DNA from: an uncultured Syntrophaceae bacterium
GTDB taxonomy: Bacteria; Desulfobacterota; BSN033; UBA1163
Direction of reading: 5' to 3'
DNA length: 64,000 nucleotides
NCBI GenBank assembly: GCA_964390545.1
Contig: CAYMJV010000003.1
Span: forward strand, 127-64,126
Shown here: piece by piece, positions 26,344 to 50,821 of the stretch
Layout: the number at the start of each line of letters is the position of its first letter
Numbering within the stretch: the first letter of the stretch is position 1
Position numbers and translations under genes: made by a program
The notes under the pieces: model-generated
Told to the model about the DNA's origin: nothing
Database searches by the model: none
What the model saw: only the letters and a program-made list of their open reading frames with translations

Positions 26344-26979
26344 ATGGGTATACGGGAAAGGAAAGATCGAGAAAAAGATTTGAGGCGGCAACAGATACAA
26401 GAGGCTGCCAAAGAGCTATTTTTATTAAAAGGTTTGAATTCAACCACCATGGAAGATATTGCAAAAAAAGCGGAATTAAGCCCTGCCACTATCTATTTAT
26501 ATTTCAAAAACAAGGATGAACTTTATGTTTCACTCAATTTAAGTTCCATCCAATACTTCACGAATAACATCAAGAAAATTCATGATGATAGTAAACTATC
26601 AGTGGAGGAAAAAATACTCAAGATTAAAGACGCAATGTACAACATGTATAAGCACGACCCGCTCATGTTGCGTAACATTATGCATATCCAAATGGAAGAT
26701 ACCTTATTGAACATTTCCAGAGACTTGGTCGACAAGATTAACAATCTTGCGGCAGAAGTCATGGAGATGATCGCCCATATTTACGAGGAGGGGGTCCGTC
26801 AAGGGAAATTGAAGAGCGGCCGTAGTATGGCTCTTGCAGATATTATGTGGGGAATTTTTACGGGCCTAGTCATGTGGGAAGAATCAAAGAGAAGATTCAA
26901 TCCTAAAAAAGATTTTCTTAAACCCACCTTGGATAAAGCCTTTGATATTTTCTTGAAAGGAATTAGAAAAGGTCGGTAA
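26344..26979 (+). CDS. TetR/AcrR-family transcriptional regulator
   Basis: 211 aa. HTH TTMEDIAKKAELSPATIYLYFKNKDELY. AT-rich upstream region. Confidence 0.9.
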   Translation: MGIRERKDREKDLRRQQIQEAAKELFLLKGLNSTTMEDIAKKAELSPATIYLYFKNKDELYVSLNLSSIQYFTNNIKKIHDDSKLSVEEKILKIKDAMYNMYKHDPLMLRNIMHIQMEDTLLNISRDLVDKINNLAAEVMEMIAHIYEEGVRQGKLKSGRSMALADIMWGIFTGLVMWEESKRRFNPKKDFLKPTLDKAFDIFLKGIRKGR

Positions 26980-27057
26980 TTCACCTCTACGAGGTTCGTT
27001 CCAGCAGCGTTCATGAGGTGACAATCTACTGAAATCTGGATTGAAGAGACCATTACC

Positions 27058-28167
27058 TTGATATCACTCGACAGGACATCGGTGTTGGATTGCACAACCC
27101 TTTTGCCCGGTCCTTACTGCACCATGATGCTGGGTGAATTGGGGGCGGAAGTGATAAAAGTCGAAAAGCCTGGGAAGGGGGATCTTCTGCGAGGTATATG
27201 GCCAGAGTGCTTTCGCTACTTAAACGGTCACAAGAAGCTCATCACCCTGGACTTAAAGCAAGAGGAAGGCCGAAATACCCTTTTGGGATTAGCCTCCAAG
27301 ATCCATGTCTTTGTTGAAGGATTCAGGCCCGGCATTGCCGCTGATTTGGGGATTGATTTTGATACCTTCAAGAAAGTTAATCCATCGATAATCTATTGCT
27401 CAATTTCAGGATACGGCCAAGACGGACCGTACGCCCGTCTTCCCGGGCATGATATCAACTATCAAGGGCTCAGTGGGCTCCTTAGCATCTCCGGCGATCC
27501 TGAATCTGGCCCAGAATTCCATTGTGGATTTGCAGTAGCTGATTTGAGCGGTTCCATGTTCGCTTTAGTTTCAATCCTGGCGGCACTTCTGAGACCCGAT
27601 AGCCATTCCACAGCAATCCATCTAGATATCTCTATTGCAGAGAGTTTAGGGATGTGGATGATTCCGGGATTCCTGGAATTCGTTGGTCTAGGTCGACCGC
27701 CGAAGGCTGAATTCAGGGGGCGAGGCCCTTACGGAATTTTTGAAACGCGGGATAAGAAATACCTCACTCTGGGTGTCGTCGAGGATCATTTTTGGTTCAA
27801 TCTATGCAAGGCTCTCGGATTAAATGATCTTGCTTCAGACAAGGGGTTCAATAGCTGGCAGTCGAGGAACACGAACAGGGGGCGAATCGTCCCTAGACTT
27901 AGGGACGCGTTTAAAGAGGATGACTTGGAATCTTGGATTAAGAAGCTGAGAGAAATGAATGTACCCGTTGCGCCAGTGTTGGATTTTAACAATTGGATGG
28001 ACGATCCCCAATTTGTCCATCGGGGTTTCATACCTAAAACTGAAAAGGGGACAGTCGATCTGGGAAACCTGAGACGTTTTCTGATAACCTCGCTCTCAAG
28101 ACGGCAAGACGATAAGGAACAGCCTCTAACCTTAGGAAGGGATAACGGGACTGTACTTCAAAAGTAG
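27058..28167 (+). CDS. family III CoA-transferase
   Basis: 369 aa with a TTG start. GPYCTMMLGELGAEVIKVEKPGKGDLLR. Confidence 0.85.
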   Translation: MISLDRTSVLDCTTLLPGPYCTMMLGELGAEVIKVEKPGKGDLLRGIWPECFRYLNGHKKLITLDLKQEEGRNTLLGLASKIHVFVEGFRPGIAADLGIDFDTFKKVNPSIIYCSISGYGQDGPYARLPGHDINYQGLSGLLSISGDPESGPEFHCGFAVADLSGSMFALVSILAALLRPDSHSTAIHLDISIAESLGMWMIPGFLEFVGLGRPPKAEFRGRGPYGIFETRDKKYLTLGVVEDHFWFNLCKALGLNDLASDKGFNSWQSRNTNRGRIVPRLRDAFKEDDLESWIKKLREMNVPVAPVLDFNNWMDDPQFVHRGFIPKTEKGTVDLGNLRRFLITSLSRRQDDKEQPLTLGRDNGTVLQK

Positions 28168-28255
28168 GCGTAGATAATATCGCCATACTTAAGGAGAAGG
28201 GTGTTATAGCGTTTTTTAAACGTCTTAGGAAGACATCATACGGTGAGTAAAAGCT

Positions 28256-29404
28256 ATGGATTTTCAGCTTAATGAAGAGCAGAGGATTCTGCAAAAGGAA
28301 ATCAAGAGGTTCTTAGAGAAGGAGATTGCTCCTCTGGTTAATGAATATGAATATGAACGAAAACCTCTAACCAAAGAAATCATTAAGAAATTGGAACCGT
28401 TTGGATTCACTCGGGCGATTGTACCAGAAGAAAGGGGAGGGCTTGGAGATCTTGTCAGTTATTTTATTATGATCGAGGAACTCAGCAGGGTCTGGGGCTC
28501 TCTGCGGACGCTCATTAGTGTCAGTTCCCTTGCTGCATATACAATAGCGATGAGAGGGACAAAAGAACAGAGAGAGAAGTTTTTGCCAGGTCTGTTCTCG
28601 TTGGACATCCTGGCCTGTTTTGCTCTGACAGAGCCCAATGTGGGATCTGATGCAGGTGCTGTTGAGACAACAGCCGAAAGAAAGGGTGATCACTATCTCA
28701 TCAATGGTTCGAAGACGATGATTACCGGTGGTAGTATGGCTGATGTAGTATGCTTGTACGCCACGGTGGATCGATCGAAGAAAGAAAAGGGCATCACTGC
28801 GTTTCTGGTCAAAAAAGGCGAGTCGGAGTTTGAAGCATCGAATATCAAAAAGATGGGGATGCATTCGTCCGTGTTGTCGGAACTCTCCTTCGACGACTCC
28901 CGCGTGCCGATTGAAAATCGACTAGGAGAAGAAGGTGAAGGTCTAAGAATTGCTCTTATTGGACTGAACATCGGCCGTGTTGCTGTATCGTTTGGCGCTG
29001 TCGGCATAGCGCAGGCTGCCTTGGATGCTGCGATCCGTTATGCCAAAAAACGAGTTCAATTTGGCAAACCGATCGGTGGCTTCCAGCTTGTTCAAGAGAT
29101 GATTGTGGATATGGCATTGAAAGTGGATGCGGCGCGGTTATTGAGTTTAAGGGCCGCTGAATTACTGAACAGAGGTGCCGAATGCAGACGTGAAGCTTCA
29201 TTCGCCAAGTTGTTTTCCACGGAAATGGTGATGGATGTCGCCAACAAGGCCATTCAGGTACACGGGGGGTACGGATATACAGAAGAGTACCCTGTTGAGA
29301 GGTATTATCGTGACGGACGCCACTTGACCCTGGCAGAGGGCACCAGTGAAATACAGAAACTTATTATTGGCCGAGATATCTTAGGAATCTCTGCGATTAC
29401 TTAG
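28256..29404 (+). CDS. acyl-CoA dehydrogenase
   Basis: 382 aa. ALTEPNVGSDAG, and YRDGRHLTLAEGTSEIQKLIIG containing the catalytic Glu region. Confidence 0.9.
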   Translation: MDFQLNEEQRILQKEIKRFLEKEIAPLVNEYEYERKPLTKEIIKKLEPFGFTRAIVPEERGGLGDLVSYFIMIEELSRVWGSLRTLISVSSLAAYTIAMRGTKEQREKFLPGLFSLDILACFALTEPNVGSDAGAVETTAERKGDHYLINGSKTMITGGSMADVVCLYATVDRSKKEKGITAFLVKKGESEFEASNIKKMGMHSSVLSELSFDDSRVPIENRLGEEGEGLRIALIGLNIGRVAVSFGAVGIAQAALDAAIRYAKKRVQFGKPIGGFQLVQEMIVDMALKVDAARLLSLRAAELLNRGAECRREASFAKLFSTEMVMDVANKAIQVHGGYGYTEEYPVERYYRDGRHLTLAEGTSEIQKLIIGRDILGISAIT

Positions 29405-29654
29405 TGGACCAACCCAGCGTTTCTGTAGAAAAATCATGGCGTTGGTATTCCGACACTTCTCATATCCATGAGAGTTCAGGATGTTTAGGGTTTTGTTTAA
29501 AGGAAAAGCGCCGCAGATAATTTGAATTCGTAAGATAGGACCAGCAGGAGCGATCCGGGCTCAAAAGACTGTGTATGATCGTGATGGCGCGCCGGACTAA
29601 AGATGCTCGAGAACCATAATTCTTAAGTTAGTTTAGAGCAAAAAGGAGGAATAA

Positions 29655-31034
29655 ATGAGGAAGATCAGTCTCGGTTCAGGATCAGGATATTGGGGTGAAC
29701 CTCTTGATCTCACGAAAGAATTAGCAGAAAGGGCGGATCTCGACTATATAGGGTTGGAACTCTTGGCCGAATTAAGTATGTCAATCCTGCAGGGTTGGAA
29801 GGCAAAAGATCCTTCTAAGGGATATGTTCCAGATTTGCTTGAACAGTTGAGATTGATCCTGCCACATACCTCCAAGAAGGGTACGAAAATCATTACAAAT
29901 GGAGGTGGGACCAATCCCAAACAGGCTGCTGAAGAGATTGCCAAACTGATCAAAGAGCTGCGTCTTCCTCCGATGAAGATAGGAATTATAGAGGGAGAGG
30001 ACTTCTATCATCAGATAGACAATATGCTATCAAAAGGGATTGAATTAGTGAATTTGGACACCGGGGAGAGGGACATTAGAGTGATTAGAGATAAGATTGT
30101 GGCGGCTCACGCTTATGTAGGCTCAGAGCTGATTATAGAGGCATTGAAGCAAGGTGCAGATATGGTCATTTCGGGAAGGGTTTCAGATAACGCTCTATAT
30201 GTTGGACCTATCATGTACGAATTTGGGTTGAGTTTCGAAGATCCTGACTGGGAGAAGATTGGGGCAGCAATAACGATCGGTCACATTATCGAATGCGGCG
30301 AGGCTGTAACCGGGGGTTTGTCCAATTTCTGGAAGGATAATAAGGAGCCTTGGAATATGGGGATGCCCATCGCTGAAGTGAGTGAAACTCTCGAAGAAGC
30401 GATCATTACAAAAACCCCCAAATCGGGTGGTCAGATGACCGTCAATACGGTTAAAGAGCATCTGGTCTATGAGACCCACGACCCCAAGAATTACCTTATG
30501 CCAGACGGCGTGGCAGATCTTACAACACTAAAGCTGGAACAAGTTGGAGAAGACAGAGTCAGAGTGACCAACATGAAGGGGGGTAAGAAAAGGCCTGATA
30601 CCTTGAAGTGTCAGATAGGTTATGAAGAGAGCTGGATGGCGACGTCGGAGGTCATACTTGCGTGGCCTGAAGCTATCACAAAGGCCAAGTTTTATGAGCA
30701 GATTGTGAGAGAAAGATTTAAGAAATATCGGATCGAGCCATTAGAAATAAGGTTTGACTGGATAGGGATAAATGGGGCGCATGGAGCGGTTGCACCAATC
30801 CCAGAGGACGAGGATTCCGTTAATGAGATTCTTGTTCGGTGTGCTGCCAAATTTAAAGATAAGGCAGAGGCTAACCAAGCGAGAAGGTTCTGTATGATGG
30901 GATCGTTAGTCCTTGCACCCATAGGCCTAACTCATGGGATGCCTAGTCCCTCGCGGAGGGTCATTGGTCTATGGCCCACCCTCATTCCTAGGGAAGAGAT
31001 TAAACTCAGTTTGACGATGAGGGAGGTGAAATAA
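29655..31034 (+). CDS. AtuA-like protein (DUF1446, acyclic terpene utilisation family)
   Basis: 459 aa with an AAGGAGG RBS. The N-terminus ISLGSGSGYWGEPLDLTKELAERADLDYIGLELLAELSM matches the DUF1446 signature as I recall it (IG.G.GF.GD ... LDYL.FE.LAE). Confidence 0.7.
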   Translation: MRKISLGSGSGYWGEPLDLTKELAERADLDYIGLELLAELSMSILQGWKAKDPSKGYVPDLLEQLRLILPHTSKKGTKIITNGGGTNPKQAAEEIAKLIKELRLPPMKIGIIEGEDFYHQIDNMLSKGIELVNLDTGERDIRVIRDKIVAAHAYVGSELIIEALKQGADMVISGRVSDNALYVGPIMYEFGLSFEDPDWEKIGAAITIGHIIECGEAVTGGLSNFWKDNKEPWNMGMPIAEVSETLEEAIITKTPKSGGQMTVNTVKEHLVYETHDPKNYLMPDGVADLTTLKLEQVGEDRVRVTNMKGGKKRPDTLKCQIGYEESWMATSEVILAWPEAITKAKFYEQIVRERFKKYRIEPLEIRFDWIGINGAHGAVAPIPEDEDSVNEILVRCAAKFKDKAEANQARRFCMMGSLVLAPIGLTHGMPSPSRRVIGLWPTLIPREEIKLSLTMREVK

Positions 31035-31035
31035 A

Positions 31036-31356
31036 ATGAAGAGAAAGGTGCAATTGAGAAATCTTGCTTGGGCAAGATCCGGAGATAAGGGCGACATATC
31101 AGATTTGGGCATCATGCCCTTCAACGAGAGGAACTACGAGATACTCAAAAGAGAGGTTACCCCTGAGAAAGTGAAAGCCTTTTTTAAGGAGGATGTTAAA
31201 GGCGCCGTAGAAGTTTACTGGATGGATAATCTTCCTGCCATTAAGGTGGTCATGCATAATGCTTTAGGAGGCGGAGCCACCAAGACCCTCAGGTGGGATG
31301 AGACAGGAAAAGCAATGGCAACTGCGATTTTGAGAATGGAAGTAGAGGTGGATTAG
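31036..31356 (+). CDS. small AtuA-associated protein (probably the detached C-terminal module of long AtuA proteins)
   Basis: 106 aa. The ATG is 1 nt after the AtuA-like stop. ARSGDKGD and ALGGGATKTLRWDETGKA blocks. Assignment made from memory only. Confidence 0.4.
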   Translation: MKRKVQLRNLAWARSGDKGDISDLGIMPFNERNYEILKREVTPEKVKAFFKEDVKGAVEVYWMDNLPAIKVVMHNALGGGATKTLRWDETGKAMATAILRMEVEVD

Positions 31357-31487
31357 CCTTTCTTGGTTTTAGAAAGGGTAATCCATTGAATTCCTAAAAC
31401 TGCGAATTTCCACAACTGCGTTCCCAGTTGAGACAAAGTAGAGGGGATTCATGTTAGGCGGGTTGGAGCAGTTAGGGGCAACTGGTT

Positions 31488-33068
31488 ATGGGACAGTGGA
31501 TGGATGGGTTCACGAAGCGATTAGATGCGATCAGAAAAGCAGGTATCGAAGGGGGAGGGAGAGATCGAGTTGAAATCCAGCACAAATTAGGGAAGTTGAC
31601 TGCGCAGGAGAGGATCCAGCGGTTATTTGATCGAGGGAGTTTTCAACCATTAGGCACACTGGTAGTGGAACAGCAGGAGATAGCAGTCGTCGATGCGGGC
31701 GAGGTCAAAAGGAAGGGGCGAAGCGGCAAGAAGAGCCCGAGTGACGGCGTCGTCATAGGCTTTGGCAAGGTGAATGGGAAAAAGGTTGCTGCATACGCGA
31801 CAGATTTTATCGTTATGTCGGGGAGCGTTGGGGATCAAGGATCCTGGATGATTTCCGACATGATTTCGATGGCCGGGAAAATGCGGATTCCATTAATTGC
31901 GATGTACGATTCTGCTGGTTTGAGAGGCACATTTACGAATGGCAGGCCGGGATACGATGGGATTGGCAGAATCTTGAAATACCATTCACTGTATTCTGGT
32001 GTGATTCCTCAGATAGGACTATTGCTCGGGCCTTGTGTGGGTCTGATGGCATATGCTCCTGTTCTTTGCCATTTTCTTATTATGAATGGAAAAAACGCTT
32101 TCCTGTGGCTTGGAGGAGAAAAAGAATCAGATGGAGCGGGCAGCGCCCAACAACATATGATGGAGTCGGGGCAATGTGACTTTGTTGTAGATAGTGATGA
32201 AGCGGCAATAGATAAAGCAAAAGAGCTCCTACGATTCTTGCCACAGAACTGTTGGGAGAATCCACCTCGCCTCGAGACGAGTGATCCAATAGACAGGCAG
32301 GAAGAAGACCTTGTTGAGGTAATGCCAAACGATCCCAAGTTCACCTATGACATACATGAAATCATCAGCAGGATCGTGGACGATGGCTATTATCTCGAGC
32401 TCAAAAAGGATTTCGCGACTCATTTCGTTATTGGTTTTTGCTCGTTCGGGGGGAAGGTGGCAGGGCTTGTTGCCAATAACCCTGATGAGCTGAGCGGAAT
32501 ATTTGAGCCTGATTGCTCCGATAAATATGATAGGTTTATGAATTTCTTGGATGCCTTCAACATACCGCTGATCACCTTATCAGATACCACAGCTTTCGTG
32601 CCGGGTGATAGGTGGGAGAGAAAGGGTGTGATTAGACATGGGGCCAAGTTGCTTCATTCCTATGCAAGATTTACGGCGCCCAAAATAACCATGCCTCTCA
32701 GACGCTTTTACGGGGGTGGACAGGTAGTGATGGGTGCGCACGGAATGGCCCCTGATCTTATTTATGGTTGGCCTACTGCTGAGTTTGCACCTGCAGGGCC
32801 TGAAAATATTGTACAGACGATATTTCATAAGGAACTGAAGAAAGCCAAAGACGAAGGCAATTATCAGGAGGTTCATGACAAACTTTTAGCTCAGTTGGTT
32901 CAGGAATGCAGTGTCATGACACGGGCAAGGAGTTGGACTGACGTATATACCGTTCAAGAAGTCATTGACCCAAGAGAGACCAGGCCGACACTGTGCAGGG
33001 CTTTAGAAGTGTTAGAGGGCAAGGAGGAGAAATTGCCTGATAATAAGAGATCGATTAAGCCGGCTTAG
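31488..33068 (+). CDS. acyl-CoA carboxylase carboxyltransferase subunit (PccB/AccD5/AtuC type), paralogue 1
   Basis: 526 aa. QHKLGKLTAQERIQRLFDRGSF, and DTTAFVPGDRWERKGVIRHGAKLL. Confidence 0.9.
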   Translation: MGQWMDGFTKRLDAIRKAGIEGGGRDRVEIQHKLGKLTAQERIQRLFDRGSFQPLGTLVVEQQEIAVVDAGEVKRKGRSGKKSPSDGVVIGFGKVNGKKVAAYATDFIVMSGSVGDQGSWMISDMISMAGKMRIPLIAMYDSAGLRGTFTNGRPGYDGIGRILKYHSLYSGVIPQIGLLLGPCVGLMAYAPVLCHFLIMNGKNAFLWLGGEKESDGAGSAQQHMMESGQCDFVVDSDEAAIDKAKELLRFLPQNCWENPPRLETSDPIDRQEEDLVEVMPNDPKFTYDIHEIISRIVDDGYYLELKKDFATHFVIGFCSFGGKVAGLVANNPDELSGIFEPDCSDKYDRFMNFLDAFNIPLITLSDTTAFVPGDRWERKGVIRHGAKLLHSYARFTAPKITMPLRRFYGGGQVVMGAHGMAPDLIYGWPTAEFAPAGPENIVQTIFHKELKKAKDEGNYQEVHDKLLAQLVQECSVMTRARSWTDVYTVQEVIDPRETRPTLCRALEVLEGKEEKLPDNKRSIKPA

Positions 33069-33163
33069 ATGTGAGTTGTAAAAGGAGGTAGATCATTTTA
33101 GCAATTCCGATGTAGGTCAAAGTACTTAGTAACCCTATCGTTTCAAAACCCGAGAGGGCGCAG

Positions 33164-34735
33164 ATGGACCAGATTTTGAAAGAAGCAACCGAAAGATTAA
33201 AAAAGCTGAGAGCAGGGAATCTCTTGGGGGGAAGTGAAAATGCGCTGGAAAGGCAGAGGAGTCTGGGAAAACTGCCTGTAAGAGAACGAATCGACTACTT
33301 CTATGATCCAGATACCTTTCAGGAATTAGGGTCTGCGGTCACATCGACGGGAATACGTATTGATGGCAAAGTGAATGTAACTCCTGCGGATGGGGCAATT
33401 GTGGGGACCGGCAAAGTCGATAAGAGAGCTGTTGCCATGTACGCCAGCGACTTCAGCGTCCAAGCTGGTTCAATGGCCACACAACACATACAGAAATTTT
33501 TTTGCATCACCGGCTGGGCCGGAAAATGGGGGATCCCTATTGTATGGTTGATAGATTCCGCGGGGGGGAGACTCGGCGAATATGACATATCCACGGTTGG
33601 TGTTGAGTGGTTTTTTTATTATGAGTCCCGGTTTTCAGGGGTCGTTCCACAGGTTCACGTTCTACTGGGGCCCTGTGTGGCTGGACAGGCATATGCACCC
33701 TGTCTGTGCGATTTCCTGATCATGGTGAGAGGGACGTCCTACTTGTGGCTTGGAGGTCCAAGGCTAACCTCGTCTGCCACATCAGAAGAGATGGATTCGG
33801 AAGTTGGAAGCGCCGACTATCACATGAAACTCACCGGATCTGTCGATTACGTGGCAGTCGATGACCGCGACGCTCTTAGAATCGCAAGGAAGTTGCTTAG
33901 CTACCTGCCTTCTAACTGGAGGGAAGAACCGCCTGTGTTTAATCCCGGAGGGGAGGATGCTGGCAGAGATACATTTGAGCTCTATAAGATCGTGCCTGGG
34001 GATGTTTCCAAGAAATATGATATGCATGACGTCATTAAGGTGATTGTGGATCATGGTGATTACTTAGAGCTGAAAGATGAGTATGCCAAAAATCTGATTA
34101 CGTGCTTTGCGCGTATTGACGGCCGTTCGGTGGGTATTGTGGCTAACAATCCGAGTGAACCAGGCAGCATTCTGGAGCGCAATTCTTGTGATAAGTATTA
34201 CCGGTTCCTATCCGTCCTTGATGCGTACAACATCCCTCTGATTAATCTCGTTGACACACCTCCCTATGTACCCGGCGAAAATGAAGAAAAATTGGGCTTA
34301 CTGAGACATGGGGGAAAGATCATTGATCTCTACGCAACGACAACCATACCCAAGATAAGTATTGTCTTAAGACAGGCGTATGGGGATGCGGGAGCTTTCA
34401 TTATGGGGGTATCAAAAAGCATGGGTGCTGATATTTGTTATGCTTGGCCGAATGCGATCATGGCAGTAGAGATATCAGAAATGAATATCCATAAAGCCTA
34501 TATGGGAGGTGGAGTTGAAAAAGACGCCTATGAATCCTACCTAGGGGAAGTGCGGGAGAAAGTAAGTGTATTTGACGTGGCCAATACATGGACTGCAAAT
34601 GTCATTGACGAGGTCATTGACCCCGGCGAGACAAGGAAAAAGATAATCGAGGCCATTGAGGTAACGAAGAACAAGCAAGAGATATTACCTATGTTTCCGA
34701 AGAGCAAAAAAGGCCACGGGGCACCTCCTGGTTAA
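33164..34735 (+). CDS. acyl-CoA carboxylase carboxyltransferase subunit, paralogue 2
   Basis: 523 aa. RQRSLGKLPVRERIDYFYDPDTF, and DTPPYVPGENEEKLGLLRHGGKII. Confidence 0.9.
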   Translation: MDQILKEATERLKKLRAGNLLGGSENALERQRSLGKLPVRERIDYFYDPDTFQELGSAVTSTGIRIDGKVNVTPADGAIVGTGKVDKRAVAMYASDFSVQAGSMATQHIQKFFCITGWAGKWGIPIVWLIDSAGGRLGEYDISTVGVEWFFYYESRFSGVVPQVHVLLGPCVAGQAYAPCLCDFLIMVRGTSYLWLGGPRLTSSATSEEMDSEVGSADYHMKLTGSVDYVAVDDRDALRIARKLLSYLPSNWREEPPVFNPGGEDAGRDTFELYKIVPGDVSKKYDMHDVIKVIVDHGDYLELKDEYAKNLITCFARIDGRSVGIVANNPSEPGSILERNSCDKYYRFLSVLDAYNIPLINLVDTPPYVPGENEEKLGLLRHGGKIIDLYATTTIPKISIVLRQAYGDAGAFIMGVSKSMGADICYAWPNAIMAVEISEMNIHKAYMGGGVEKDAYESYLGEVREKVSVFDVANTWTANVIDEVIDPGETRKKIIEAIEVTKNKQEILPMFPKSKKGHGAPPG

Positions 34736-34739
34736 AAGA

Positions 34740-35087
34740 TTGAAGTTGGAAATGTTGGGACTTTTTTCTGCATCGATAGACGGTGGGAAATGGAATTTTC
34801 ATAAATGTCCGCTAAAAAAAGTTGTGTCTAGAAATGAATGGAGGAAAACAGTGGAAGTGAGAGCGCTCATGTCCGGAGTATTCTACAGAAAACCTACCCC
34901 TGAAGCACCCCCCTACGTGGAGGTAGGGGATCAAGTAAAGAAAGGGCAGGTACTGGGTCTTTTGGAGACGATGAAGGTGTTCCAGAAAATTAAGGCTCCG
35001 GTGGATGGAAAAGTTGTTGAAATTCTTGCCGAGAATGAGGGTTTGATTAAGGACAACCAAGTTATCTTCGTGATAGAAGCAGCTTAG
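34740..35087 (+). CDS. biotin carboxyl carrier protein (biotinyl domain only)
   Basis: Biotinyl-lipoyl fold VRALMSGVFYRKP..VEVGDQVKKGQVLGLLETMKVFQKIKAPVDGKVVEI, with Lys in E-T-M-K-V. Start is uncertain (TTG 34740 or ATG 34752). Confidence 0.8.
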   Translation: MKLEMLGLFSASIDGGKWNFHKCPLKKVVSRNEWRKTVEVRALMSGVFYRKPTPEAPPYVEVGDQVKKGQVLGLLETMKVFQKIKAPVDGKVVEILAENEGLIKDNQVIFVIEAA

Positions 35088-35093
35088 AATGAT

Positions 35094-36473
35094 GTGAAAA
35101 GGGAAATGATGTTTTCAAAAGTACTTGTTGCCAACAGAGGAGAGATCGCCGTTAGGGTAATAAGAGCTCTAAGAGAGTTAGGTATAGCGAGCGTTGCAGT
35201 CTATTCCGAAGCTGATAAGAACTGCTTGCATCTTGAGTTGGCTGACGAGAAAGTGTGTATTGGTCCATCTATCAGTGCTAAAAGCTACTTAAATATTGAG
35301 AACATCATCAGGGCAGCGAAGGAGACAAAGGCCGAGGCCATTCATCCCGGTTATGGATACTTGGCTGAGAGTGGGGAATTTGCCAAGGAATTAGAGAAAG
35401 AGGGTTTTGTCTTTATTGGGCCCAGTCCTGAGAATCTTCAACTGGCTGGTGATAAGCTTATTGCGAAGAAAATAGTGAAGAGCGCAGGTGTACCCATCAT
35501 ACCGAGCAGCCCGGATGGGGTCGGTACGATTGAGGAAGCAAAGAAAATTTGTGGCACGATCGGATACCCGGTGATGATCAAGGCATCCGGAGGAGGCGGC
35601 GGATGCGGAATAAGGATCTGTGACAACGAGGAAGCCCTGATGGAGGAATTCCCCGTGGCCAAAATGGAAGCACGTGCTGCGTTTGGGAATGGTGAACTCT
35701 ATATTGAGAAATATGTTGTTGAACCGCGGCATATCGAATTTCAGGTGTTGGCTGATGCGTCGGGGAATGTGATCCACTTGGGCGAGCGCGAGTGCAGCAT
35801 CCAGCGGCGGTACCAGAAGCTGATTGAAGAATGTCCTTCTCCCCTGCTGACGCCCGAAATGCGAAAGGCCATGGGCGACGCGGCGATCGCTGCGGCAAAG
35901 GCGGTGAAGTATCTTAACGCTGGCACGATGGAATTTCTCGTGGATAAAGCAGGCCGTTTCTATTTTATGGAAATCAATGCGAGAATTCAAGTTGAGCATC
36001 CAGTGACAGAACTTGTGACGGGTGTGGACCTTGTCAAGGAGCAGATCAGGCTCTCCTCAGGAGGTCAACTGGAGTATTCCTTCGATGATTTGATCAGAAG
36101 GGGATGGGCTATAGAATGCAGGATCAATGCAGAAGATCCTGATAGGAACTTCGCCCCCTCTCCGGGGACTGTTGAGGAATATCAGGCGCCCGGGGGGTTT
36201 GGAGTGAGGTTGGATACTCATCTGTATCAGGGTTATGAAATACCTGTCTATTATGATTCTCTGATCGCCAAACTCATTGCCTTTGATCTAACGCGAGACC
36301 GCGCAATCCAAATCATGAAAAGGGCACTCGGCGAACTCAAGATAAGCCCTATCAAAACCACCATACCCCTTTACCTAAGAATCATGGATGATCCCCAGTT
36401 CCGGCAGGGTGAATTCAACACCGGCTTTCTTAAAAACTACTTGCTAGGAAAGGATGAGGAAGAGGAGTTTTAG
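35094..36473 (+). CDS. biotin carboxylase (AccC-type ATP-grasp)
   Basis: 459 aa. KVLVANRGEIAVRVIRA, GYPVMIKASGGGGGCGIR, and EINARIQVEHPVTE. Confidence 0.95.
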   Translation: MKREMMFSKVLVANRGEIAVRVIRALRELGIASVAVYSEADKNCLHLELADEKVCIGPSISAKSYLNIENIIRAAKETKAEAIHPGYGYLAESGEFAKELEKEGFVFIGPSPENLQLAGDKLIAKKIVKSAGVPIIPSSPDGVGTIEEAKKICGTIGYPVMIKASGGGGGCGIRICDNEEALMEEFPVAKMEARAAFGNGELYIEKYVVEPRHIEFQVLADASGNVIHLGERECSIQRRYQKLIEECPSPLLTPEMRKAMGDAAIAAAKAVKYLNAGTMEFLVDKAGRFYFMEINARIQVEHPVTELVTGVDLVKEQIRLSSGGQLEYSFDDLIRRGWAIECRINAEDPDRNFAPSPGTVEEYQAPGGFGVRLDTHLYQGYEIPVYYDSLIAKLIAFDLTRDRAIQIMKRALGELKISPIKTTIPLYLRIMDDPQFRQGEFNTGFLKNYLLGKDEEEEF

Positions 36474-36535
36474 AAACAAATGACACGGTCCCATGTTGTC
36501 ATCAATGTAGATTGTAGCTCAGAAGGGGATTCCAT

Positions 36536-37951
36536 ATGACAGGAATAAAATCTTGTGGAGCGTATATTCCCACCTACAGGCTGAGTAGAGGCGAGATTTC
36601 GAGAGCCATGGGGATCTCTTCTCTAGGTGGGGAAAGGTCTGTGGCAAATTTTGACGAAGATACCATCACGATGTCTGTTCAGGCAGTTAGAGATACGATC
36701 ACCGATGCAGATGTCGGAGAGATAGATGCCCTTTTTTTTGCAAGTACCACGCCACCCTATCATCAGAAGGAATCTGCAAGTACTGTGGCCACGGGGGCAG
36801 ATTTGAAAGAAGATATCCTAACGTCTGATTTGCTGAGTTCCCCGAGGGCAAGTGTGTCGGCGTTGAGCTTAGCCATGGACAGGGTGAAGAGCGGATCTGC
36901 TTCTAACATCTTAGTTGCTGCGTCCGACTGCCGATTGGTTCCTGGGGGATCGGAGCTCGAGCAGTCCTATGGAGACGGTGCGGCAGCGGTTTTGGTTGGG
37001 TCGGACAACCTCATTGCAAGATTTGAGGCAGAGTATTCCGTTAGTGATGATTTCATTGATGTGTGGCGAACCGCTGAGGACAAGTTTGTCAAATCATGGG
37101 AGGACAGGTTTATTAAAACAGAGGGATACCATAAAAACGTGACCAGAGCGGTAAGGGGTCTGTTACAAAAATATGGACTATCTCCTTTGGATTTCCAGAA
37201 GGCCGTCATTCCTGCTCCCGATATGAGATCGCTTCGGGAAGTGGGTAAAAGCCTTGGTTTTGATCTCAAGACGCAAATCCAGGATCCTCTATTCAGCACG
37301 GTGGGGGATACGGGTACAGCCCAGCCGCTACTCCTGTTGACTGCGTGTTTAGAAGAAGCAAAGCCGAACGATAAAATACTTTTGGTAGGTTTCGGTGATG
37401 GAGCCCAAGCCTTGGTTTTTTCTGTGACGGAGAAAATAAGAGAAAAAGGGAAGCATACCATTGCAGACTGTGTGGCATCCAAGATGCTTTTGAATAAGTA
37501 TGAGGAGTATCTGAAGTTTAGAAACCTCATGACAACGGAAGCTGCGAGAAGACCGAGCTATCCATCCTCGGTGCCTTATATGTGGAGAGAAAGGAACTAT
37601 TTCACGAGGTTCCATGGAAGCAAGTGTTTGAACTGTGGTACCGAGCAGTATCCCAGACACAGAATATGCTACGAATGTAAGAGCAAAGATAGGTTCGAGG
37701 AAATAAAACTGGCTCGCAGAAAAGGTCACGTGATTACGTACACGAAGGATTATCTTTTTCCATCGACCGTCCCGCCCCATGTCCAAGCAGTGGTAGAGCT
37801 TGAAGGAGGATGTAGGGTGTACATGATGATGACAGATGTAAACCCTGATAAAGTGAAAAGCGAGATGTCGGTCCAAATGGTTTTTAGGATGCTTCACGAT
37901 CGTGGGGGATTCTTCCACTACGGGTGGAAGGCCAAGCCCTTGGATCAATAG
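36536..37951 (+). CDS. HMG-CoA synthase-like (thiolase-fold) domain fused to a DUF35 OB-fold/zinc-ribbon domain
   Basis: 471 aa. The N-terminal roughly 340 aa are collinear with archaeal/bacterial HMGCS (CGAYIPTYRL, NFDEDTITM, YGDGAAAVLVG, GDTGTAQPLL, GFGDGA). The C-terminus has CLNCGTEQYPRHRICYECKS plus an OB fold. Confidence 0.75.
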   Translation: MTGIKSCGAYIPTYRLSRGEISRAMGISSLGGERSVANFDEDTITMSVQAVRDTITDADVGEIDALFFASTTPPYHQKESASTVATGADLKEDILTSDLLSSPRASVSALSLAMDRVKSGSASNILVAASDCRLVPGGSELEQSYGDGAAAVLVGSDNLIARFEAEYSVSDDFIDVWRTAEDKFVKSWEDRFIKTEGYHKNVTRAVRGLLQKYGLSPLDFQKAVIPAPDMRSLREVGKSLGFDLKTQIQDPLFSTVGDTGTAQPLLLLTACLEEAKPNDKILLVGFGDGAQALVFSVTEKIREKGKHTIADCVASKMLLNKYEEYLKFRNLMTTEAARRPSYPSSVPYMWRERNYFTRFHGSKCLNCGTEQYPRHRICYECKSKDRFEEIKLARRKGHVITYTKDYLFPSTVPPHVQAVVELEGGCRVYMMMTDVNPDKVKSEMSVQMVFRMLHDRGGFFHYGWKAKPLDQ

Positions 37952-37963
37952 GAGGTGGGTTCA

Positions 37964-39127
37964 ATGCCTGCTGGAAACATTAAGGATAAGGTCTCTATCG
38001 TTGGCATGGGATGCACCAAATTTGGTGAGAACTGGGAGATGAGCGCTGATGATATGATCATTGATGCTGCCTATGAGGCCTTTGAAGATGCCGGCATTGA
38101 TCCTAAGGATATCCAAGCAGCCTGGGTTGGGGTAACCTCTTCCGGTGCTTCCGGTGCGACTCTGGCAAATCCTTTGAAGCTTGATCGGATCCCGATCACA
38201 AGAGTGGAGAATTACTGTGCTACGGGACAGGAGGCAATAAGAAATGCGGCATTCGCCGTGGCCTGTGGCATGTATGATATCGTCCTAGCCTTGGGGTATG
38301 AGAAACTGAAAGATACAGGCGCCCGTGGACTTCCTTTTGTCAGCATGGTGGACCCCGTGATTGGATTGGGTGCAACGCCGCCTGGACTTTTCGGCGTTCC
38401 ATGGGTCACCTTTTTTGAGAAGTATGGAGTGACTAAGGAGACATTGGCCAAGATTGCCGTCAAGAATCACTATAACGGATCAATGAATCCAAAAGCCCAT
38501 TTCCAGAAAGCGATCACACTGGAGGACGTAATGAAGGCGCCGATCATTGCCTGGCCTCTGGGGGTCTTTGACTGTTGTCCTACCACAGATGGTGCCGCTG
38601 CCGCCATACTGGTCAGCAGGGAAATGGCCAGAAGCTTTCGGGAAGATTACATAAATATCAAAGGACTTTCTGTAATGGTTGATCCTCTCTATCCTGGTTA
38701 TAGGCCAAAACACGATTTTTCGAGCTGGCCTGCTACAGCCCGAGCTGCGGAGGATGCATACCGACAGGCCGGTATAACCCATCCCAGAAAAGAGCTGGAC
38801 CTGGTTGAACTTCATGATTGTTTTACGATAACTGAACTGGTTACTTATTGTGATCTTGGCCTGTGTGAGAAAGAAGAAGTTAAAGATTGCGTCGACTCAG
38901 GGGTTTTTGAACTGACAGGTGACCTGCCTGTTAATGCCAGCGGAGGTTTGAAGTCTTGTGGCCATCCTGTTGGCGCAACCGGCGTCAGGATGGTTTATGA
39001 GCTCTATAAGCAGATGCAGGGGAAGGTCGAAAGCAAAAGGCAGATCAAGGACGCTGCATTGGGATTGGCCCATAACCTGGGTGGGGCCCCGCAGGTGGCC
39101 AGCGCTATTATTGTAGGGATCGATTGA
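37964..39127 (+). CDS. SCP-x/thiolase-like protein (DUF35-partnered thiolase)
   Basis: AGGAGG at 37950-37955 favours ATG 37964. Catalytic Cys region VENYCATGQEAIRNAA, and NASGGLKSCGHPVGATG. Confidence 0.85.
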   Translation: MPAGNIKDKVSIVGMGCTKFGENWEMSADDMIIDAAYEAFEDAGIDPKDIQAAWVGVTSSGASGATLANPLKLDRIPITRVENYCATGQEAIRNAAFAVACGMYDIVLALGYEKLKDTGARGLPFVSMVDPVIGLGATPPGLFGVPWVTFFEKYGVTKETLAKIAVKNHYNGSMNPKAHFQKAITLEDVMKAPIIAWPLGVFDCCPTTDGAAAAILVSREMARSFREDYINIKGLSVMVDPLYPGYRPKHDFSSWPATARAAEDAYRQAGITHPRKELDLVELHDCFTITELVTYCDLGLCEKEEVKDCVDSGVFELTGDLPVNASGGLKSCGHPVGATGVRMVYELYKQMQGKVESKRQIKDAALGLAHNLGGAPQVASAIIVGID

Positions 39128-49924: not shown

Positions 49925-50803
49925 ATGAAAATTAAGAAGATATTTGTAGTGGGAGCTGGCTTAATGGGAAGTGGAATAACACAAGTTTGCGGCCAGGCGG
50001 GGTATTCGGTAGTCATGGAGGATGTGACAGATACCGCTGTAAAAAAAGGGCTCGATGCCATTCGATGGTCGGTGAACAAGTTTGTTGAAAAAGGAAAAGT
50101 GAAGGGTACGGTCGATGAGGTTATGGGAAGGATTGCAACCAGCACGGATATGGCTGACGCAAAGGACGCGGACTTTGTATTCGAGGCCGTGTTTGAAGAC
50201 CTTAAGGTCAAACATGAAGTGTTTTCAAAGTTGGATGAAATCTGTCCATCCCATACTATCCTGGCTACGAATACCTCAGCGATTCCCATAACCGAAATAG
50301 CCGCAGCCACAAAACGAGCGGAAAGGGTGATAGGAACGCATTTCTTCAGTCCTGTGCCCATGATGCCTGTAGTGGAGGTCATCCGTGGCTTATGTACATC
50401 TGATGAGACAATGCAAGCGACCAAGGAGCTGTGTCAATCCATTGGCAGAGAGCCTATCACCTGCAATAAGGATGTGGCAGGTTTTCTTTTTAGCAGGCTC
50501 AATGCAGCTGGCAATATTGAAATCATAAAACTGGTAGAGCAGGGAGTCGGTACCGTTGAGGAGATTGACAAAGGGGTAAGGTTAGGACTCGGGAGAGCGA
50601 TGGGGCCATTTGAAACGGGTGATCTTACGGGCTTAGATGTATCTTTGAACGCTTACATGAACATTTACAACGAGACCAAGGATCCAAAGTTCTTTCCACC
50701 GATGCTGTTGAGGAGAAAGGTTAAGGCTGGGCATCTGGGGAAAAAGGTGGGAATAGGGTGGTATCGGTATGATGATAAAGGAAATCGTATTGGGCCGGCA
50801 TAG
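49925..50803 (+). CDS. 3-hydroxyacyl-CoA dehydrogenase (Hbd type)
   Basis: 292 aa. Rossmann motif KIFVVGAGLMGSGITQ, plus HFFSPVPMMPVVEVI. Confidence 0.9.
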   Translation: MKIKKIFVVGAGLMGSGITQVCGQAGYSVVMEDVTDTAVKKGLDAIRWSVNKFVEKGKVKGTVDEVMGRIATSTDMADAKDADFVFEAVFEDLKVKHEVFSKLDEICPSHTILATNTSAIPITEIAAATKRAERVIGTHFFSPVPMMPVVEVIRGLCTSDETMQATKELCQSIGREPITCNKDVAGFLFSRLNAAGNIEIIKLVEQGVGTVEEIDKGVRLGLGRAMGPFETGDLTGLDVSLNAYMNIYNETKDPKFFPPMLLRRKVKAGHLGKKVGIGWYRYDDKGNRIGPA

Positions 50804-50821
50804 GAAGGGGGAGGAAGTGCT

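Follow-up and report, generated by a model that had tools for sequence, protein, structure and literature searches.

The part of the window (the whole 64,000-nucleotide stretch of DNA analysed here) between positions 26344 and 39127, probably together with 49925-54212, can be read as a TetR-controlled catabolic module for acyl-CoAs in which a beta-branch blocks beta-oxidation, a reading that we give about an even chance. If it is true, CO2 addition, hydration and cleavage would take place as in the terpene and leucine pathways of Pseudomonas, but via different enzyme lineages. The gene order reported in a preliminary description, running from the TetR regulator through a CoA-transferase, an acyl-CoA dehydrogenase (ACAD), AtuA with its small partner, two carboxyltransferases (CTs) and the biotin carboxyl carrier protein (BCCP) to biotin carboxylase (BC), is exact; Pfam confirms every gene, all on the same strand, and the profile searches proposed for DUF1446 and the small partner bore out both assignments (Table 1).

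Table 1. Features of the window, with the matches on which each assignment rests
Feature	Position	Strand	Basis
TetR-family regulator	26344..26979	+	PF00440 58 bits; TetR_C_5 (Pfam)
Family III CoA-transferase	27058..28167	+	PF02515 286 bits
Acyl-CoA dehydrogenase (ACAD; short-chain/glutaryl-CoA-dehydrogenase-like)	28256..29404	+	All ACAD Pfam domains matched
AtuA/ThnQ-type C-C lyase, large subunit (putative)	29655..31034	+	AtuA/DUF1446 PF07287 400.7 bits, E 1e-119
Lyase small subunit (putative), 106 aa (ThnS/CmlB counterpart)	31036..31356	+	PF23544 AtuA_ferredoxin 90 bits
Carboxyltransferase CT1	31488..33068	+	PF01039 (Carboxyl_trans) 369 bits
Carboxyltransferase CT2	33164..34735	+	PF01039 (Carboxyl_trans) 340 bits
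Stand-alone biotin carboxyl carrier protein (BCCP)	34740..35087	+	PF00364 60 bits
Biotin carboxylase (BC; ATP-grasp) subunit	35094..36473	+	NCBIfam TIGR00514 accC 663 bits, above cut-off
HMG-CoA-synthase-like domain, apparently dead, fused to DUF35 zinc-ribbon/OB fold	36536..37951	+	PDB matches
Archaeal-type thiolase	37955..39127	+	NCBIfam NF004810 504 bits, above cut-off
Glycyl radical enzyme (GRE) and activase	39216-42567	+	
Probable accessory set: 3-hydroxyacyl-CoA dehydrogenase, crotonase (hydratase candidate), DUF35, second SCP-x/BbsB-like thiolase	49925..53365	+	Pfam
Second crotonase, alternative hydratase candidate	53436..54212	+	PF00378 185 bits
HgdAB/BCR-like proteins	12359-15128		

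In the order of steps that we infer, the family III CoA-transferase or a nearby AMP-ligase would make the CoA ester, and the ACAD would form a 3-substituted 2-enoyl-CoA. A four-part biotin enzyme (BC, BCCP and CT1:CT2) would spend ATP to add CO2 at the gamma carbon, and the resulting 3-substituted glutaconyl-CoA would be hydrated by a crotonase to a tertiary 3-hydroxy-3-substituted glutaryl-CoA. A two-subunit lyase of the AtuA/ThnQS type would split off acetate to leave a 3-oxoacyl-CoA, from which the archaeal-type thiolase, held on a dead HMGCS::DUF35 scaffold, would release acetyl-CoA. Candidate substrates would be isovalerate or another 3-methyl acid, or else Thn-type alicyclic acetic acids. 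The block itself encodes no hydratase, the nearest lying 12 kb downstream, and the crotonases that Pfam detects in the window are found only downstream of the block (at 50822, 53436 and 54464). The earlier statement that the block lacks both an AtuE-type hydratase and an HMG-CoA lyase is therefore correct for the hydratase; the notion of a missing lyase, on the other hand, is at odds with the AtuA pair.

The large AtuA subunit is 51% identical to ThnQ of strain NaphS2, whose gene is within the thn operon, and the small partner is 50% identical to the thn counterpart ThnS. An AlphaFold model of AtuA (pLDDT 89.9) has a single strong Foldseek match, to the solved citramalate lyase 9evf_A (E 7e-26, TM 0.75), with which it shares its fold, and a profile search matches 9erq_A. 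The likeness to ThnQ and ThnS, coupled with the exclusive structural match to citramalate lyase, suggests that AtuA and its 106-residue partner can be read as a two-subunit C-C lyase, and hence as the enzyme thought to be absent. The host genome (85% complete) offers no canonical alternative to the module, as it contains neither another full-length PCC/MCC-family CT nor an HMGL protein of HMG-CoA-lyase size. The gene for the small subunit begins 1 nt after the AtuA stop codon and adjoins AtuA in 67 of 68 species-level loci with a split AtuA. These same loci contain a crotonase in 55 cases, an ACAD in 46 and a BC or CT in 40, and the link between lyase and carboxylase is thus a general one.

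The genes preceding the lyase are compatible with a catabolic role. TetR is encoded by the first gene of the plus-strand run, behind an AT-rich region containing TTGACA, and is probably the local repressor of the module. The family III CoA-transferase, which has a 55% identical orthologue in module locus L038, probably serves in substrate activation or CoA shuffling; a CoA_transf_3 gene also lies at the edge of L033. Each module locus also encodes an ACAD, 33-43% identical to the one here, for which the best-scoring NCBIfam models, AcrC (370 bits) and the non-decarboxylating glutaryl-CoA dehydrogenase (346 bits), both stay below cut-off. The surroundings of the block hold TetR, CoA-transferase and AMP-ligase genes and an uptake ABC system.

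The carboxyltransferases are not of the AtuC/LiuB type. Against PDB chains, CT1 and CT2 score about 310-370 bits to PCC/MMD/12S-type proteins and 130-180 bits to GCC/MCC beta; taken together with the single CT of related operons, the ranges are 370-511 bits to PCC/MMD/ACC structures and 130-250 bits to MCC/GCC. In a tree with only five canonical anchors, CT1 and CT2 are sister paralogues (support 100/100 for each clade; CT1 orthologues 56-63% identical) placed beside the canonical PCC beta anchors and far from MCC-type CTs, and the AtuA-linked CTs form a clade of their own (100/99). Relative to the single-CT relatives, CT1 has a conserved C-domain motif and an altered N-domain motif, while CT2 has a conserved N-domain motif and a two-residue insertion in the C-domain motif. 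That complementary halves are altered suggests that the two form a heteromeric carboxyltransferase. The AtuA-linked CTs look specialised, with MCC-like residues in 4-5 of the 27 discriminating columns; in the first single-CT group, four of the five fall in catalytic motifs. Instead of the oxyanion-hole motif CAGGAVY for the acyl-CoA, CT1, CT2 and the single CTs related to them have CAAGQ(A/G)Y, C(V/I)AGQAY or CxGLxAY. The carrier protein has the biotinyl-lysine motif ETMKV and orthologues of 56-75% identity, and its true start is probably internal because those orthologues are 81-91 residues long; BC orthologues from module and phylum loci are 61-73% identical.

To our knowledge, the lineage of CT1 and CT2 is known only for alpha-carboxylation of saturated acyl-CoAs, and gamma-carboxylation is without precedent there. 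The regiochemistry cannot be read from sequence, and gamma addition is proposed here from the pathway logic. A rather unlikely alternative is that BC, BCCP and the CTs make up an ordinary alpha-carboxylase for propionyl-, acetyl- or butyryl-CoA, which would dispose of a short acyl-CoA end product or supply (methyl)malonyl-CoA, the AtuA substrate being already carboxylated as in Thn. The bit scores and the position next to the canonical anchors are in accord with this, as is the fact that the thn operon works without a carboxylase. In addition, the CT1-CT2 pair often occurs without AtuA: among the 28 of 401 genomes of the phylum that have a CT2 orthologue with adjacent CT1, AtuA is absent from 20. 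However, the annotated operons contain no methylmalonyl-CoA mutase or epimerase gene, the AtuA-linked CTs are a separate clade with changed oxyanion-hole motifs, and in aerobes the same operon position is occupied by a true MCC beta (that of Xanthobacter scores 646 bits to 3u9r), its place in Desulfobacterota being taken by a PCC-lineage CT in minimal operons of the form AtuA-Fd-CT-BCCP-BC-ECH-thiolase-ACAD. Moreover, the neighbours of the CT1-CT2 pair consistently include a crotonase and an enzyme that cleaves C-C bonds, which is AtuA or BKACE. The preliminary description had regarded grouping of the CTs with the propionyl- or acetyl-CoA carboxylases of central metabolism, combined with conservation of the block in organisms that lack branched-chain catabolism, as evidence against its reading. 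In line with the first half of this, the CTs do fall on the PCC side, yet as a clade of dedicated catabolic rather than central-metabolism enzymes. BKACE follows CT2 directly in 14 of 18 fetched CT1-CT2 loci of the phylum. Since BKACE acts on a beta-keto acid and not on a tertiary alcohol, the carboxylase product may differ from that predicted by the Atu logic.

The thiolase and HMGCS-like genes directly after the block are where the preliminary description had placed them, and the thiolase is intact, its catalytic Cys and His being aligned and conserved; HMGCS activity is not to be expected. In the fusion protein the Glu/Cys/His triad of HMGCS has become Thr/Pro/Pro, and it is likewise lost in all 6-7 orthologues, while the CxxC...CxxC pattern is kept throughout, which marks the domain as catalytically dead on sequence criteria. 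The best PDB matches of the fusion are to PhlA (9skh, 140 bits; 5m3k, 127 bits), followed by archaeal HMGCS (6esq_I, 119 bits) and DUF35 (6esq_E), and it is probably a PhlA-like scaffold for the thiolase. The latter matches acetoacetyl-CoA thiolases best (7yvy and 6esq_A, 216-222 bits), its orthologues (52-84% identical) always adjoin the pseudo-HMGCS, and it probably acts as a 3-oxoacyl-CoA thiolase after the lyase. That the pair might instead make HMG-CoA from acetyl-CoA, within a biosynthetic block serving as an alternative isovaleryl-CoA or mevalonate entry, is highly improbable: the resemblance to the archaeal complex (6esq/6et9) and a score of 228 bits to NCBIfam model NF003274 (cut-off 244) point that way, but the residue losses largely refute it, the module also includes a lyase that would break the product down again, and the neighbouring genes are catabolic.

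The module core comprises AtuA with its Fd partner, the CT pair, BCCP and BC, and the pseudo-HMGCS plus thiolase; an ACAD gene and either an ECH or a MaoC gene accompany it. This set recurs in no fewer than six independent loci from metagenomes or MAGs (L032, L033, L036/37, L038, L039 and L041), and the arrangement is therefore not a chance juxtaposition. Orthologues of the accessory set lie directly upstream of AtuA in L038 and L042 (DUF35 45-47%, thiolase 56-58%, ECH 41%), and the second crotonase has orthologues of 45-46% identity in L032 and L041.

The anaerobic setting that had been proposed is confirmed by a strict-anaerobe context, and oxygen-sensitive families are indeed nearby, namely the GRE/activase pair and the HgdAB/BCR-like proteins. 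The host is an uncultured anaerobic sediment bacterium; bbs-like and BCR-like/HgdAB-like genes also occur in the window. The GRE does follow the thiolase, as previously described, but it is not part of the conserved module. It is distinctly unlikely that the block continues a pathway started by the GRE, for example through fumarate addition to a hydrocarbon, with the CTs in the role proposed for anaerobic alkane degradation. The GRE and its activase begin 89 bp after the thiolase on the same strand, the bbs-like genes would suit such a pathway, and of the 14 MAGs that carry a close homologue of the GRE, five are also represented among the 80 best AtuA loci. Against this, none of about 90 AtuA loci has a GRE, AtuA and the carboxylase are both missing from each of the 15 GRE loci (most of which retain the activase along with FabK/NMO-like, crotonase and ligase genes), and a transcarboxylase role would need no ATP-dependent BC.

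Nothing specific speaks for the isoprenoid-type substrate once suggested, and ThnQS, the closest relative to have been characterised, acts on an intermediate with an alicyclic ring. The same chemistry might be applied to an alicyclic substrate with an acetyl-CoA side chain (cyclohexylacetate, naphthenic-acid type), the ring carbon next to the branch being carboxylated and hydration and ThnQS-like ring cleavage giving a 3-oxo-dicarboxylyl-CoA for the thiolase. We consider this unlikely. Cleavage of a cyclohexane ring by ThnQS, the similarity of the ACADs to dehydrogenases of cyclohexanecarboxyl-CoA and glutaryl-CoA, the presence of BCR-like/HgdAB-like and bbs-like genes, which are characteristic of organisms that degrade ring compounds, and the Amidohydro_2 (ThnN-like) gene accompanying related operons all favour it, whereas the thiolase is most like acetoacetyl-CoA thiolases and the minimal operons of relatives hold only four Liu-type functions, enough for isovalerate.

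The beta-branched acyl-CoA module proposed here has features in common with several known systems. Like Pseudomonas atuRABCDEFGH and liuRABCDE, it combines an AtuA-family protein with a TetR regulator, an ACAD and an acyl-CoA carboxylase that depends on ATP and biotin, and the overall logic is also the same: carboxylation next to the blocked beta-carbon, then hydration, then removal of a C2 unit. The logic of the Atu parallel first drawn for this DNA thus fits the conserved synteny. Membership does not: the CTs are duplicated and of PCC lineage rather than MCC/GCC-type, BC and BCCP are separate, unlike the fused alpha subunit AtuF, AtuA is split into two genes, the AtuB/AtuG dehydrogenases and AtuE hydratase are absent from the block, a thiolase/pseudo-HMGCS::DUF35 pair is added, and the host is a strict anaerobe. 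In Thauera linaloolentis, the canonical Atu/Liu proteins also operate during denitrifying growth (PMC4847356). The thn operon (ThnO-ThnP-ThnQ-ThnS-(ThnV)) of the sulfate-reducing naphthalene degraders N47 and NaphS2 (PMC12016498, PMC13689101) likewise has a two-subunit AtuA-like lyase, with CoA-transferase and ACAD genes ahead of it and a thiolase gene behind, in an anaerobic Desulfobacterota host; the lyase, whose activity is cited in a review as unpublished results, acts on a tertiary 3-hydroxyacyl-CoA whose neighbouring carbon bears a carboxyl group. Since this group is present in the substrate from the outset, the thn operon lacks a carboxylase; moreover, ThnP belongs to family I (acetyl-CoA hydrolase/transferase type) and not to family III, and there is no pseudo-HMGCS scaffold.

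Citramalate lyase CmlAB (PDB 9ERQ/9EVF; the Raoultella planticola enzyme was used in bioRxiv 10.64898/2026.01.16.699985) has the same fold and two subunits, is labelled AtuA family, and cleaves a tertiary alcohol to a ketone and acetate, much as proposed for the present lyase; it differs in having only 16% sequence identity, in acting on a free acid rather than a CoA ester and in lacking a carboxylase link. The three-part architecture of thiolase, HMGCS-fold and DUF35 zinc-ribbon/OB proteins is that of the archaeal complex (6ESQ/6ET9) and PhlACB (5M3K/5MG5). The thiolase most resembles the archaeal acetoacetyl-CoA thiolase, scoring only 101 bits to PhlC, whereas the HMGCS-fold protein most resembles PhlA, in which the nucleophilic Cys is missing as well. 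Here, however, HMGCS-fold and DUF35 are fused in one chain, HMG-CoA synthesis is not possible, and the setting is catabolic, beside a lyase with a predicted 3-oxoacyl-CoA product. Finally, canonical PCC, methylmalonyl-CoA decarboxylase and 12S transcarboxylase beta chains (1VRG, 1X0U, 1ON3, 3N6R, 7W5U) are the proteins that CT1 and CT2 match best in sequence, and share the two-domain crotonase-fold CT and a multi-subunit organisation with separate BC and BCCP, but CT1, CT2 and the related single CTs form a sister clade with an altered oxyanion hole, and CT1 and CT2 are obligatorily paired paralogues that always occur in catabolic operons together with a crotonase and an enzyme for C-C cleavage.

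The genes that the preliminary description read as an acyclic terpene utilisation (Atu)-like set occur in the order and at the coordinates it gave, as borne out by ORF listing and Pfam/NCBIfam scans, and they lie on one strand throughout with short gaps between them; profile matches confirm the assignment of AtuA/DUF1446 and of its small partner (see the table). Orthologues of the biotin carboxyl carrier protein (BCCP) have 81–91 aa, so the true start of the window gene, which encodes 115 aa from a TTG codon, is probably internal; its biotinylation motif differs from the usual (A/E)MKM. The biotin carboxylase (BC) gene is followed on its 3′ side by an HMGCS-like/DUF35 fusion, a thiolase, a glycyl radical enzyme (GRE) with its activase, a Liv-type ABC system and a bbs-like set with three crotonases, and on the 5′ side of the module lie further CoA-transferases and HgdAB/BCR-like proteins. 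The flanks at 10922–17609 and 59979–62280 hold a PrpD/MmgE protein, paired family III CoA-transferases and two HgdAB/BCR-like pairs without activator ATPase. The 64-kb window combines several acyl-CoA operons in a mosaic. It was correctly noted that the block contains no hydratase and that crotonases lie downstream: these are found only at 50822, 53436 and 54464, and no ECH or adh_short domain, as expected of an AtuE-type hydratase or of AtuB/AtuG short-chain dehydrogenases, occurs between 26344 and 39127. Consensus promoter and terminator matches do not exceed in frequency those in shuffled sequence, and an Rfam scan of 25300–43000 returned zero RNA families.

Genes of the carboxylase module and those directly 3′ of it
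Feature	Start	End	Strand	Basis
TetR	26344		+	ORF listing, Pfam/NCBIfam scans
Family III CoA-transferase	27058		+	ORF listing, Pfam/NCBIfam scans
Acyl-CoA dehydrogenase (ACAD)	28256		+	ORF listing, Pfam/NCBIfam scans
AtuA/DUF1446	29655	31034	+	PF07287, 400.7 bits
AtuA small partner, 106 aa	31036	31356	+	PF23544 AtuA ferredoxin-like domain, 90 bits; separate gene adjoining AtuA
Carboxyltransferase CT1	31488	33068	+	ORF listing, Pfam/NCBIfam scans
Carboxyltransferase CT2	33164	34735	+	ORF listing, Pfam/NCBIfam scans
BCCP	34740	35087	+	Biotinyl-lysine motif ETMKV
Biotin carboxylase	35094		+	ORF listing, Pfam/NCBIfam scans
HMGCS-like/DUF35 fusion	36536	37951		
Thiolase	37955	39127		
GRE with activase	39216	42567		

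The closest homologues of the window AtuA are metagenomic proteins (63–77% identity). The naphthalene-degrading delta proteobacterium NaphS2 has a protein that is 51% identical to it over 100% of the length, next to a counterpart of the small partner (50% identity), and since this locus matches the thn operon gene for gene, the large homologue is ThnQ and its small neighbour ThnS. In the thn order the CoA-transferase ThnP, the ACAD ThnO and the hydratase ThnL act before the AtuA-like step and the thiolase ThnV after it, with assays of ThnQS cited as unpublished (PMC12016498); in 2026 an "AtuA-like aldolase" was favoured once more (PMC13689101). The window AtuA and its partner lie back to back with a gap of 1 nt, and the pairing is found in 67 of 68 species-level loci encoding the two-gene (split) form of AtuA. 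Compared with the PDB, an AlphaFold model of the window protein (pLDDT 89.9) strongly matches one structure only, that of citramalate lyase (9evf_A; E 7e-26, TM 0.75), and the AtuA family profile also reaches 9erq_A. Citramalate lyase CmlAB converts citramalate directly to pyruvate and acetate (bioRxiv 10.64898/2026.01.16.699985). When the predicted reaction is compared with those of ThnQS and CmlAB, the common chemistry of the three would be the conversion of a tertiary alcohol to a ketone and an acetate-type carbanion. Given the fold match and this literature, the AtuA pair is best read as catalysing the retro-aldol cleavage of a tertiary 3-hydroxyacyl-CoA. The block had been said to lack an HMG-CoA-lyase homologue; a canonical lyase is indeed absent, but the shared chemistry implies that the "missing" enzyme would be the AtuA pair itself.

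The module is conserved at six independent loci with the closest AtuA proteins (56–77% identity; L032, L033, L036/L037, L038, L039 and, from a Bacillota MAG, L041), where the small partner, BCCP, BC, ACAD and a crotonase or MaoC dehydratase recur. Orthologues of both CT1 and CT2 (56–63% identity) are present except at contig ends; L039 has one, more distant carboxyltransferase (39–40%) at a contig edge. The HMGCS-like fusion (38–68% identity) and the thiolase (52–84%) are shared as well. Orthologues of the DUF35/thiolase pair at 51744–53365 are found directly upstream of AtuA in L038 and L042, and those of the crotonase at 50822 and the CoA-transferase at 27058 also in L038, so the module is larger than the coordinates first assigned to it. 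At the BC position of L036 (16610–16861) and L037 (14403–14654) there is an 83-aa remnant matching both Biotin_carb_N and a DDE transposase, which suggests that an insertion element broke the BC gene.

A minimal operon, found in a wider Desulfobacterota set, comprises AtuA, its partner, one PCC-lineage carboxyltransferase (511 bits to 1vrg), BCCP, BC, crotonase, thiolase and ACAD. In Thermodesulfobacteriota, minimal AtuA-carboxylase operons (L129 and L130, at about 15300–21400) are accompanied by an Amidohydro_2 (ThnN-like) gene, as in the thn operon. Across the 68 split-AtuA loci, BC or a carboxyltransferase is found at 40, a crotonase at 55, an ACAD at 46 and a GRE at none. Aerobes have a true MCC in the same operon position, which indicates that the couple of lyase and carboxylase has been kept while the carboxyltransferase lineage was exchanged; of the arguments for a carboxylase that feeds the lyase, this one is the strongest. 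In the Xanthobacter autotrophicus locus (L105:15362–18580), fragments of a group II intron RT/maturase and a Mutator-family transposase lie directly 3′ of the MCC alpha gene.

Genome contigs were searched with an AtuA alignment, a single-sequence search having given no matches. The window's own assembly (85% complete) contains no other full-length PCC/MCC-family carboxyltransferase, AccD, AccA and one fragment apart, and no HMG-CoA-lyase-sized HMGL protein; within it there is neither a canonical MCC nor an HMG-CoA lyase that would make the module redundant. The literature on DUF1446 and on AtuA with a carboxylase yielded papers on the thn operon and canonical Atu only, and no description of the module. 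Other anaerobes do have canonical Liu enzymes: Desulfococcus multivorans growing on isovalerate forms Mcc and HmgL (PMC5109826).

The preliminary description implied a carboxylase of the AtuC type. Both CT1 and CT2 match PCC/MMD/12S-type structures at about 370 bits, as against 148 and 180 bits, respectively, for GCC beta (5ikl) and 132 and 175 bits for MCC beta (3u9r), and phylogenetic placement also sets them apart from the MCC type, so that this part of the comparison does not stand. The tree was built from carboxyltransferases adjoining split AtuA in other genomes, five canonical sequences of the PDB, taken from HMMER alignments, and MCC-type carboxyltransferases anchored by a Xanthobacter protein scoring 646 bits to P. 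aeruginosa MCC beta. CT1 and CT2 form sister clades arising from one duplication (100/98) and nested in a 21-row clade (100/99) of AtuA-linked carboxyltransferases from anaerobes. The sister group of that clade is formed by the canonical PCC/ACC/MMD sequences, represented by five anchors only (join 97/98, with 100/99 either side). Well apart from it lie the MCC type, a second AtuA-linked clade of Chloroflexota and relatives, and a divergent lineage in L032 and L041. The members of the latter (L032:11923–13398 and L041:13280–14890) are third carboxyltransferases between the AtuA pair and BCCP, absent from the window; they were considered as MCC-type and rejected as such, being 26–31% identical to PCC-, MCC- and AtuA-linked enzymes alike and on a long branch.

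Membership of CT1 and CT2 in the canonical PCC/ACC/MMD group itself was also rejected, given the sister position to the five anchors and the alteration of the canonical oxyanion-hole motifs CAGGAVY and YGGAY. The canonical PCC motif CAGGAVYSP becomes CAAGQ(A/G)YSP in the AtuA-linked clade, YGGAY becomes YGGGN in CT1 and in the single-carboxyltransferase group closest to CT1/CT2, and FLPG becomes FVVG in that closest group and ITVG or ILVG in a second. At the 27 columns separating PCC anchors from MCC-type enzymes, the single-carboxyltransferase relatives have the MCC residue at four or five, and in the first group four of the five MCC-like residues fall in these catalytic motifs. This is suggestive, and no more, of a remodelled substrate site.

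The motifs are divided between the two window subunits. CT1 keeps the C-domain motif GGGN/Q of its single-subunit relatives and has an insertion and a Gly-to-Leu change in its N-domain motifs; CT2 keeps the N-domain motif AGQAY and has a two-residue insertion in that of the C domain. Per-domain identities agree modestly with this pattern, CT2 being closer to the single carboxyltransferases in its N domain (47.9%) than in its C domain (41.3%), and the CT1 clade being less conserved in the N domain (64.1%) than in the C domain (72.2%). Active sites in this enzyme family, as established for PccB, 12S and AccD5, combine the N domain of one subunit with the C domain contributed by the other. The split pattern therefore fits a CT1:CT2 heteromer, which would probably have one conserved site (CT2-N with CT1-C) and one degenerate site.

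When 401 genomes of the phylum were scanned with CT2, orthologues (52–60% identity) with an adjoining CT1 were found in 28, only eight of which have any AtuA; in G297, G117 and G083 a fused, distant AtuA lies beside the pair. A BKACE (C–C cleavage enzyme, PF05853) gene immediately follows CT2 in 14 of 18 fetched loci, usually with a crotonase next. Together with BCCP and BC, the CT1-CT2-BKACE-crotonase cassette occurs widely in the phylum, and most of the genomes concerned have no AtuA (loci L146–L162, from G360, G195, G316, G142, G101, G024, G065, G165, G140, G045, G297, G083, G225 and G037). Three BKACE genes are encoded on other contigs of the window's own genome (C87:171–1058, C21:23349–24233 and C297:47–856). 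On this evidence the CT1-CT2 carboxylase is a unit of its own, and its partners are BKACE alone, a fused AtuA with BKACE or, in the window clade, a ThnQ-like split AtuA with the thiolase and the HMGCS-like fusion. BKACE enzymes act on a beta-keto acid and acetyl-CoA, not on a tertiary alcohol. A single chemistry serving both the AtuA- and the BKACE-linked versions was sought and none could be derived, which lowers confidence in a gamma-carboxylation step.

The thiolase/HMGCS-like module directly after the block was only partly as described: the thiolase is intact, but the HMGCS-like gene has no catalytic triad. The best solved relatives of the fusion are PhlA proteins (140 and 127 bits) and then an archaeal HMG-CoA synthase (119 bits) that belongs to a thiolase/HMGCS/DUF35 complex, whose DUF35 subunit matches the C-terminus of the window protein; PF01796 also matches the fusion. 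Aligned to 6esq_I, the catalytic Glu, Cys and His of HMGCS are replaced by Thr, Pro and Pro. The triad is missing in all 6–7 orthologues, and all have the DUF35 zinc ribbon CxxC-N10-CxxC. An HMG-CoA synthase reading, and with it HMG-CoA synthesis, is ruled out by this loss, and the protein appears from its sequence to be a conserved pseudo-enzyme scaffold. The thiolase is closest to archaeal acetoacetyl-CoA thiolases (216–222 bits; BbsB 158 bits, PhlC 101 bits), and alignment with 7yvy and 6esq_A shows that it keeps the catalytic Cys and His. By analogy with ThnV, it would naturally take a 3-oxoacyl-CoA made by the lyase.

The GRE had been noted among the genes following the set; conservation does not tie it to the module: no GRE lies beside AtuA in about 90 AtuA loci, and neither AtuA nor the carboxylase occurs in any of 15 loci (L131–L145) encoding GREs 50–65% identical to that of the window. 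The activase is mostly kept in the latter, and many retain an FabK/NMO-like flavoprotein, a crotonase and an AMP-ligase like those at 21885, 54464 and 55385; in the window these partners are spread over 35 kb. A locus-level link between GRE and module, as in an X-succinate-synthase pathway, was rejected, the GRE never being conserved with the module. The GRE is a member of a different conserved set, which happens to be interleaved with the module in the window. Of the 14 MAGs with such a GRE, five encode a close split AtuA as well, on a separate contig; a shared niche is no more than hinted at by this.

Anoxic sediments, digesters and oil-impacted sites commonly contain beta-branched acids, which block ordinary beta-oxidation; among them are isovalerate from leucine fermentation and isoprenoid, alicyclic and naphthenic acids. 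To our knowledge, the Atu/Liu pathway of aerobes and denitrifiers is the one solution that has been worked out; canonical MCC and HMG-CoA lyase are used by a few sulfate reducers. The spread of CT1-CT2 (28 of 401 genomes) and of BC or carboxyltransferases near split AtuA (40 of 68 loci) shows that a different set of enzymes, for what seems to be an equivalent task, is present in many strict anaerobes. No evidence singles out the isoprenoids first proposed as substrate, and acids of the isovalerate or alicyclic type are no less likely. None of the ACADs, crotonases, ligases and CoA-transferases scores above an NCBIfam equivalog cut-off, so these scans do not narrow the substrate. The set has an ACAD and a TetR, candidate counterparts of citronellyl-CoA dehydrogenase (AtuD) and AtuR, and the nearest models for the ACAD, AcrC and glutaryl-CoA dehydrogenase, are both below cut-off.

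A tentative, and on balance doubtful, joint reading has three parts. A PCC-lineage carboxyltransferase would have independently gained vinylogous (gamma) carboxylation of 3-substituted enoyl-CoAs; duplication would have led to a CT1:CT2 heteromer that is obligate and has, in each dimer, one active site conserved and the other degenerate; and the lyase product would pass to a thiolase mounted on a dead HMG-CoA-synthase scaffold. If true, this would be a further origin of gamma carboxylation besides the MCC/GCC and glutaconyl-CoA decarboxylase lineages, and the archaeal HMG-CoA-forming complex would have been rebuilt for the breakdown direction; together with the BKACE versions it would constitute a widespread, undescribed anaerobic route for beta-branched acids. 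Three directly testable predictions come from the module itself: the AtuA family, long unassigned, would have a substrate class; carboxylases of the PCC lineage may have a new regiochemistry; and a pseudo-enzyme scaffold would have a role. When metabolism is reconstructed from anaerobic MAGs, these carboxylases should not be annotated as propionyl-CoA carboxylase, nor should the fusion protein be labelled HMG-CoA synthase.

Taken as a whole, the module belongs to a known kind of pathway, of which it is an uncharacterised variant. The Atu logic first proposed holds in being Atu/Liu-like, but the carboxylase is not of the AtuC/AtuF type, the HMGCS-like gene is a dead scaffold and the GRE is unrelated to the conserved module. 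The functions encoded by the minimal operon are just those of a Liu-type pathway, AtuA taking the place of HMG-CoA lyase. The window shares with the archaeal complex, PhlACB and BbsAB a thiolase with catalytic Cys and His and a DUF35 zinc ribbon and OB fold, a likeness at the level of sequence. With the Pseudomonas Atu cluster it shares a PF07287 protein and a ferredoxin-like domain, which here is on a separate gene. In contrast to that cluster, it has no AtuE hydratase or AtuB/AtuG within the block, its CT1 and CT2 are not of the MCC/GCC lineage of AtuC, and it has no counterpart of AtuF: the Pseudomonas protein is a fused BC-BCCP alpha subunit, as is the 657-aa alpha of the aerobic Xanthobacter locus, whereas BC (459 aa) and BCCP (at most 115 aa) are encoded here by separate genes.
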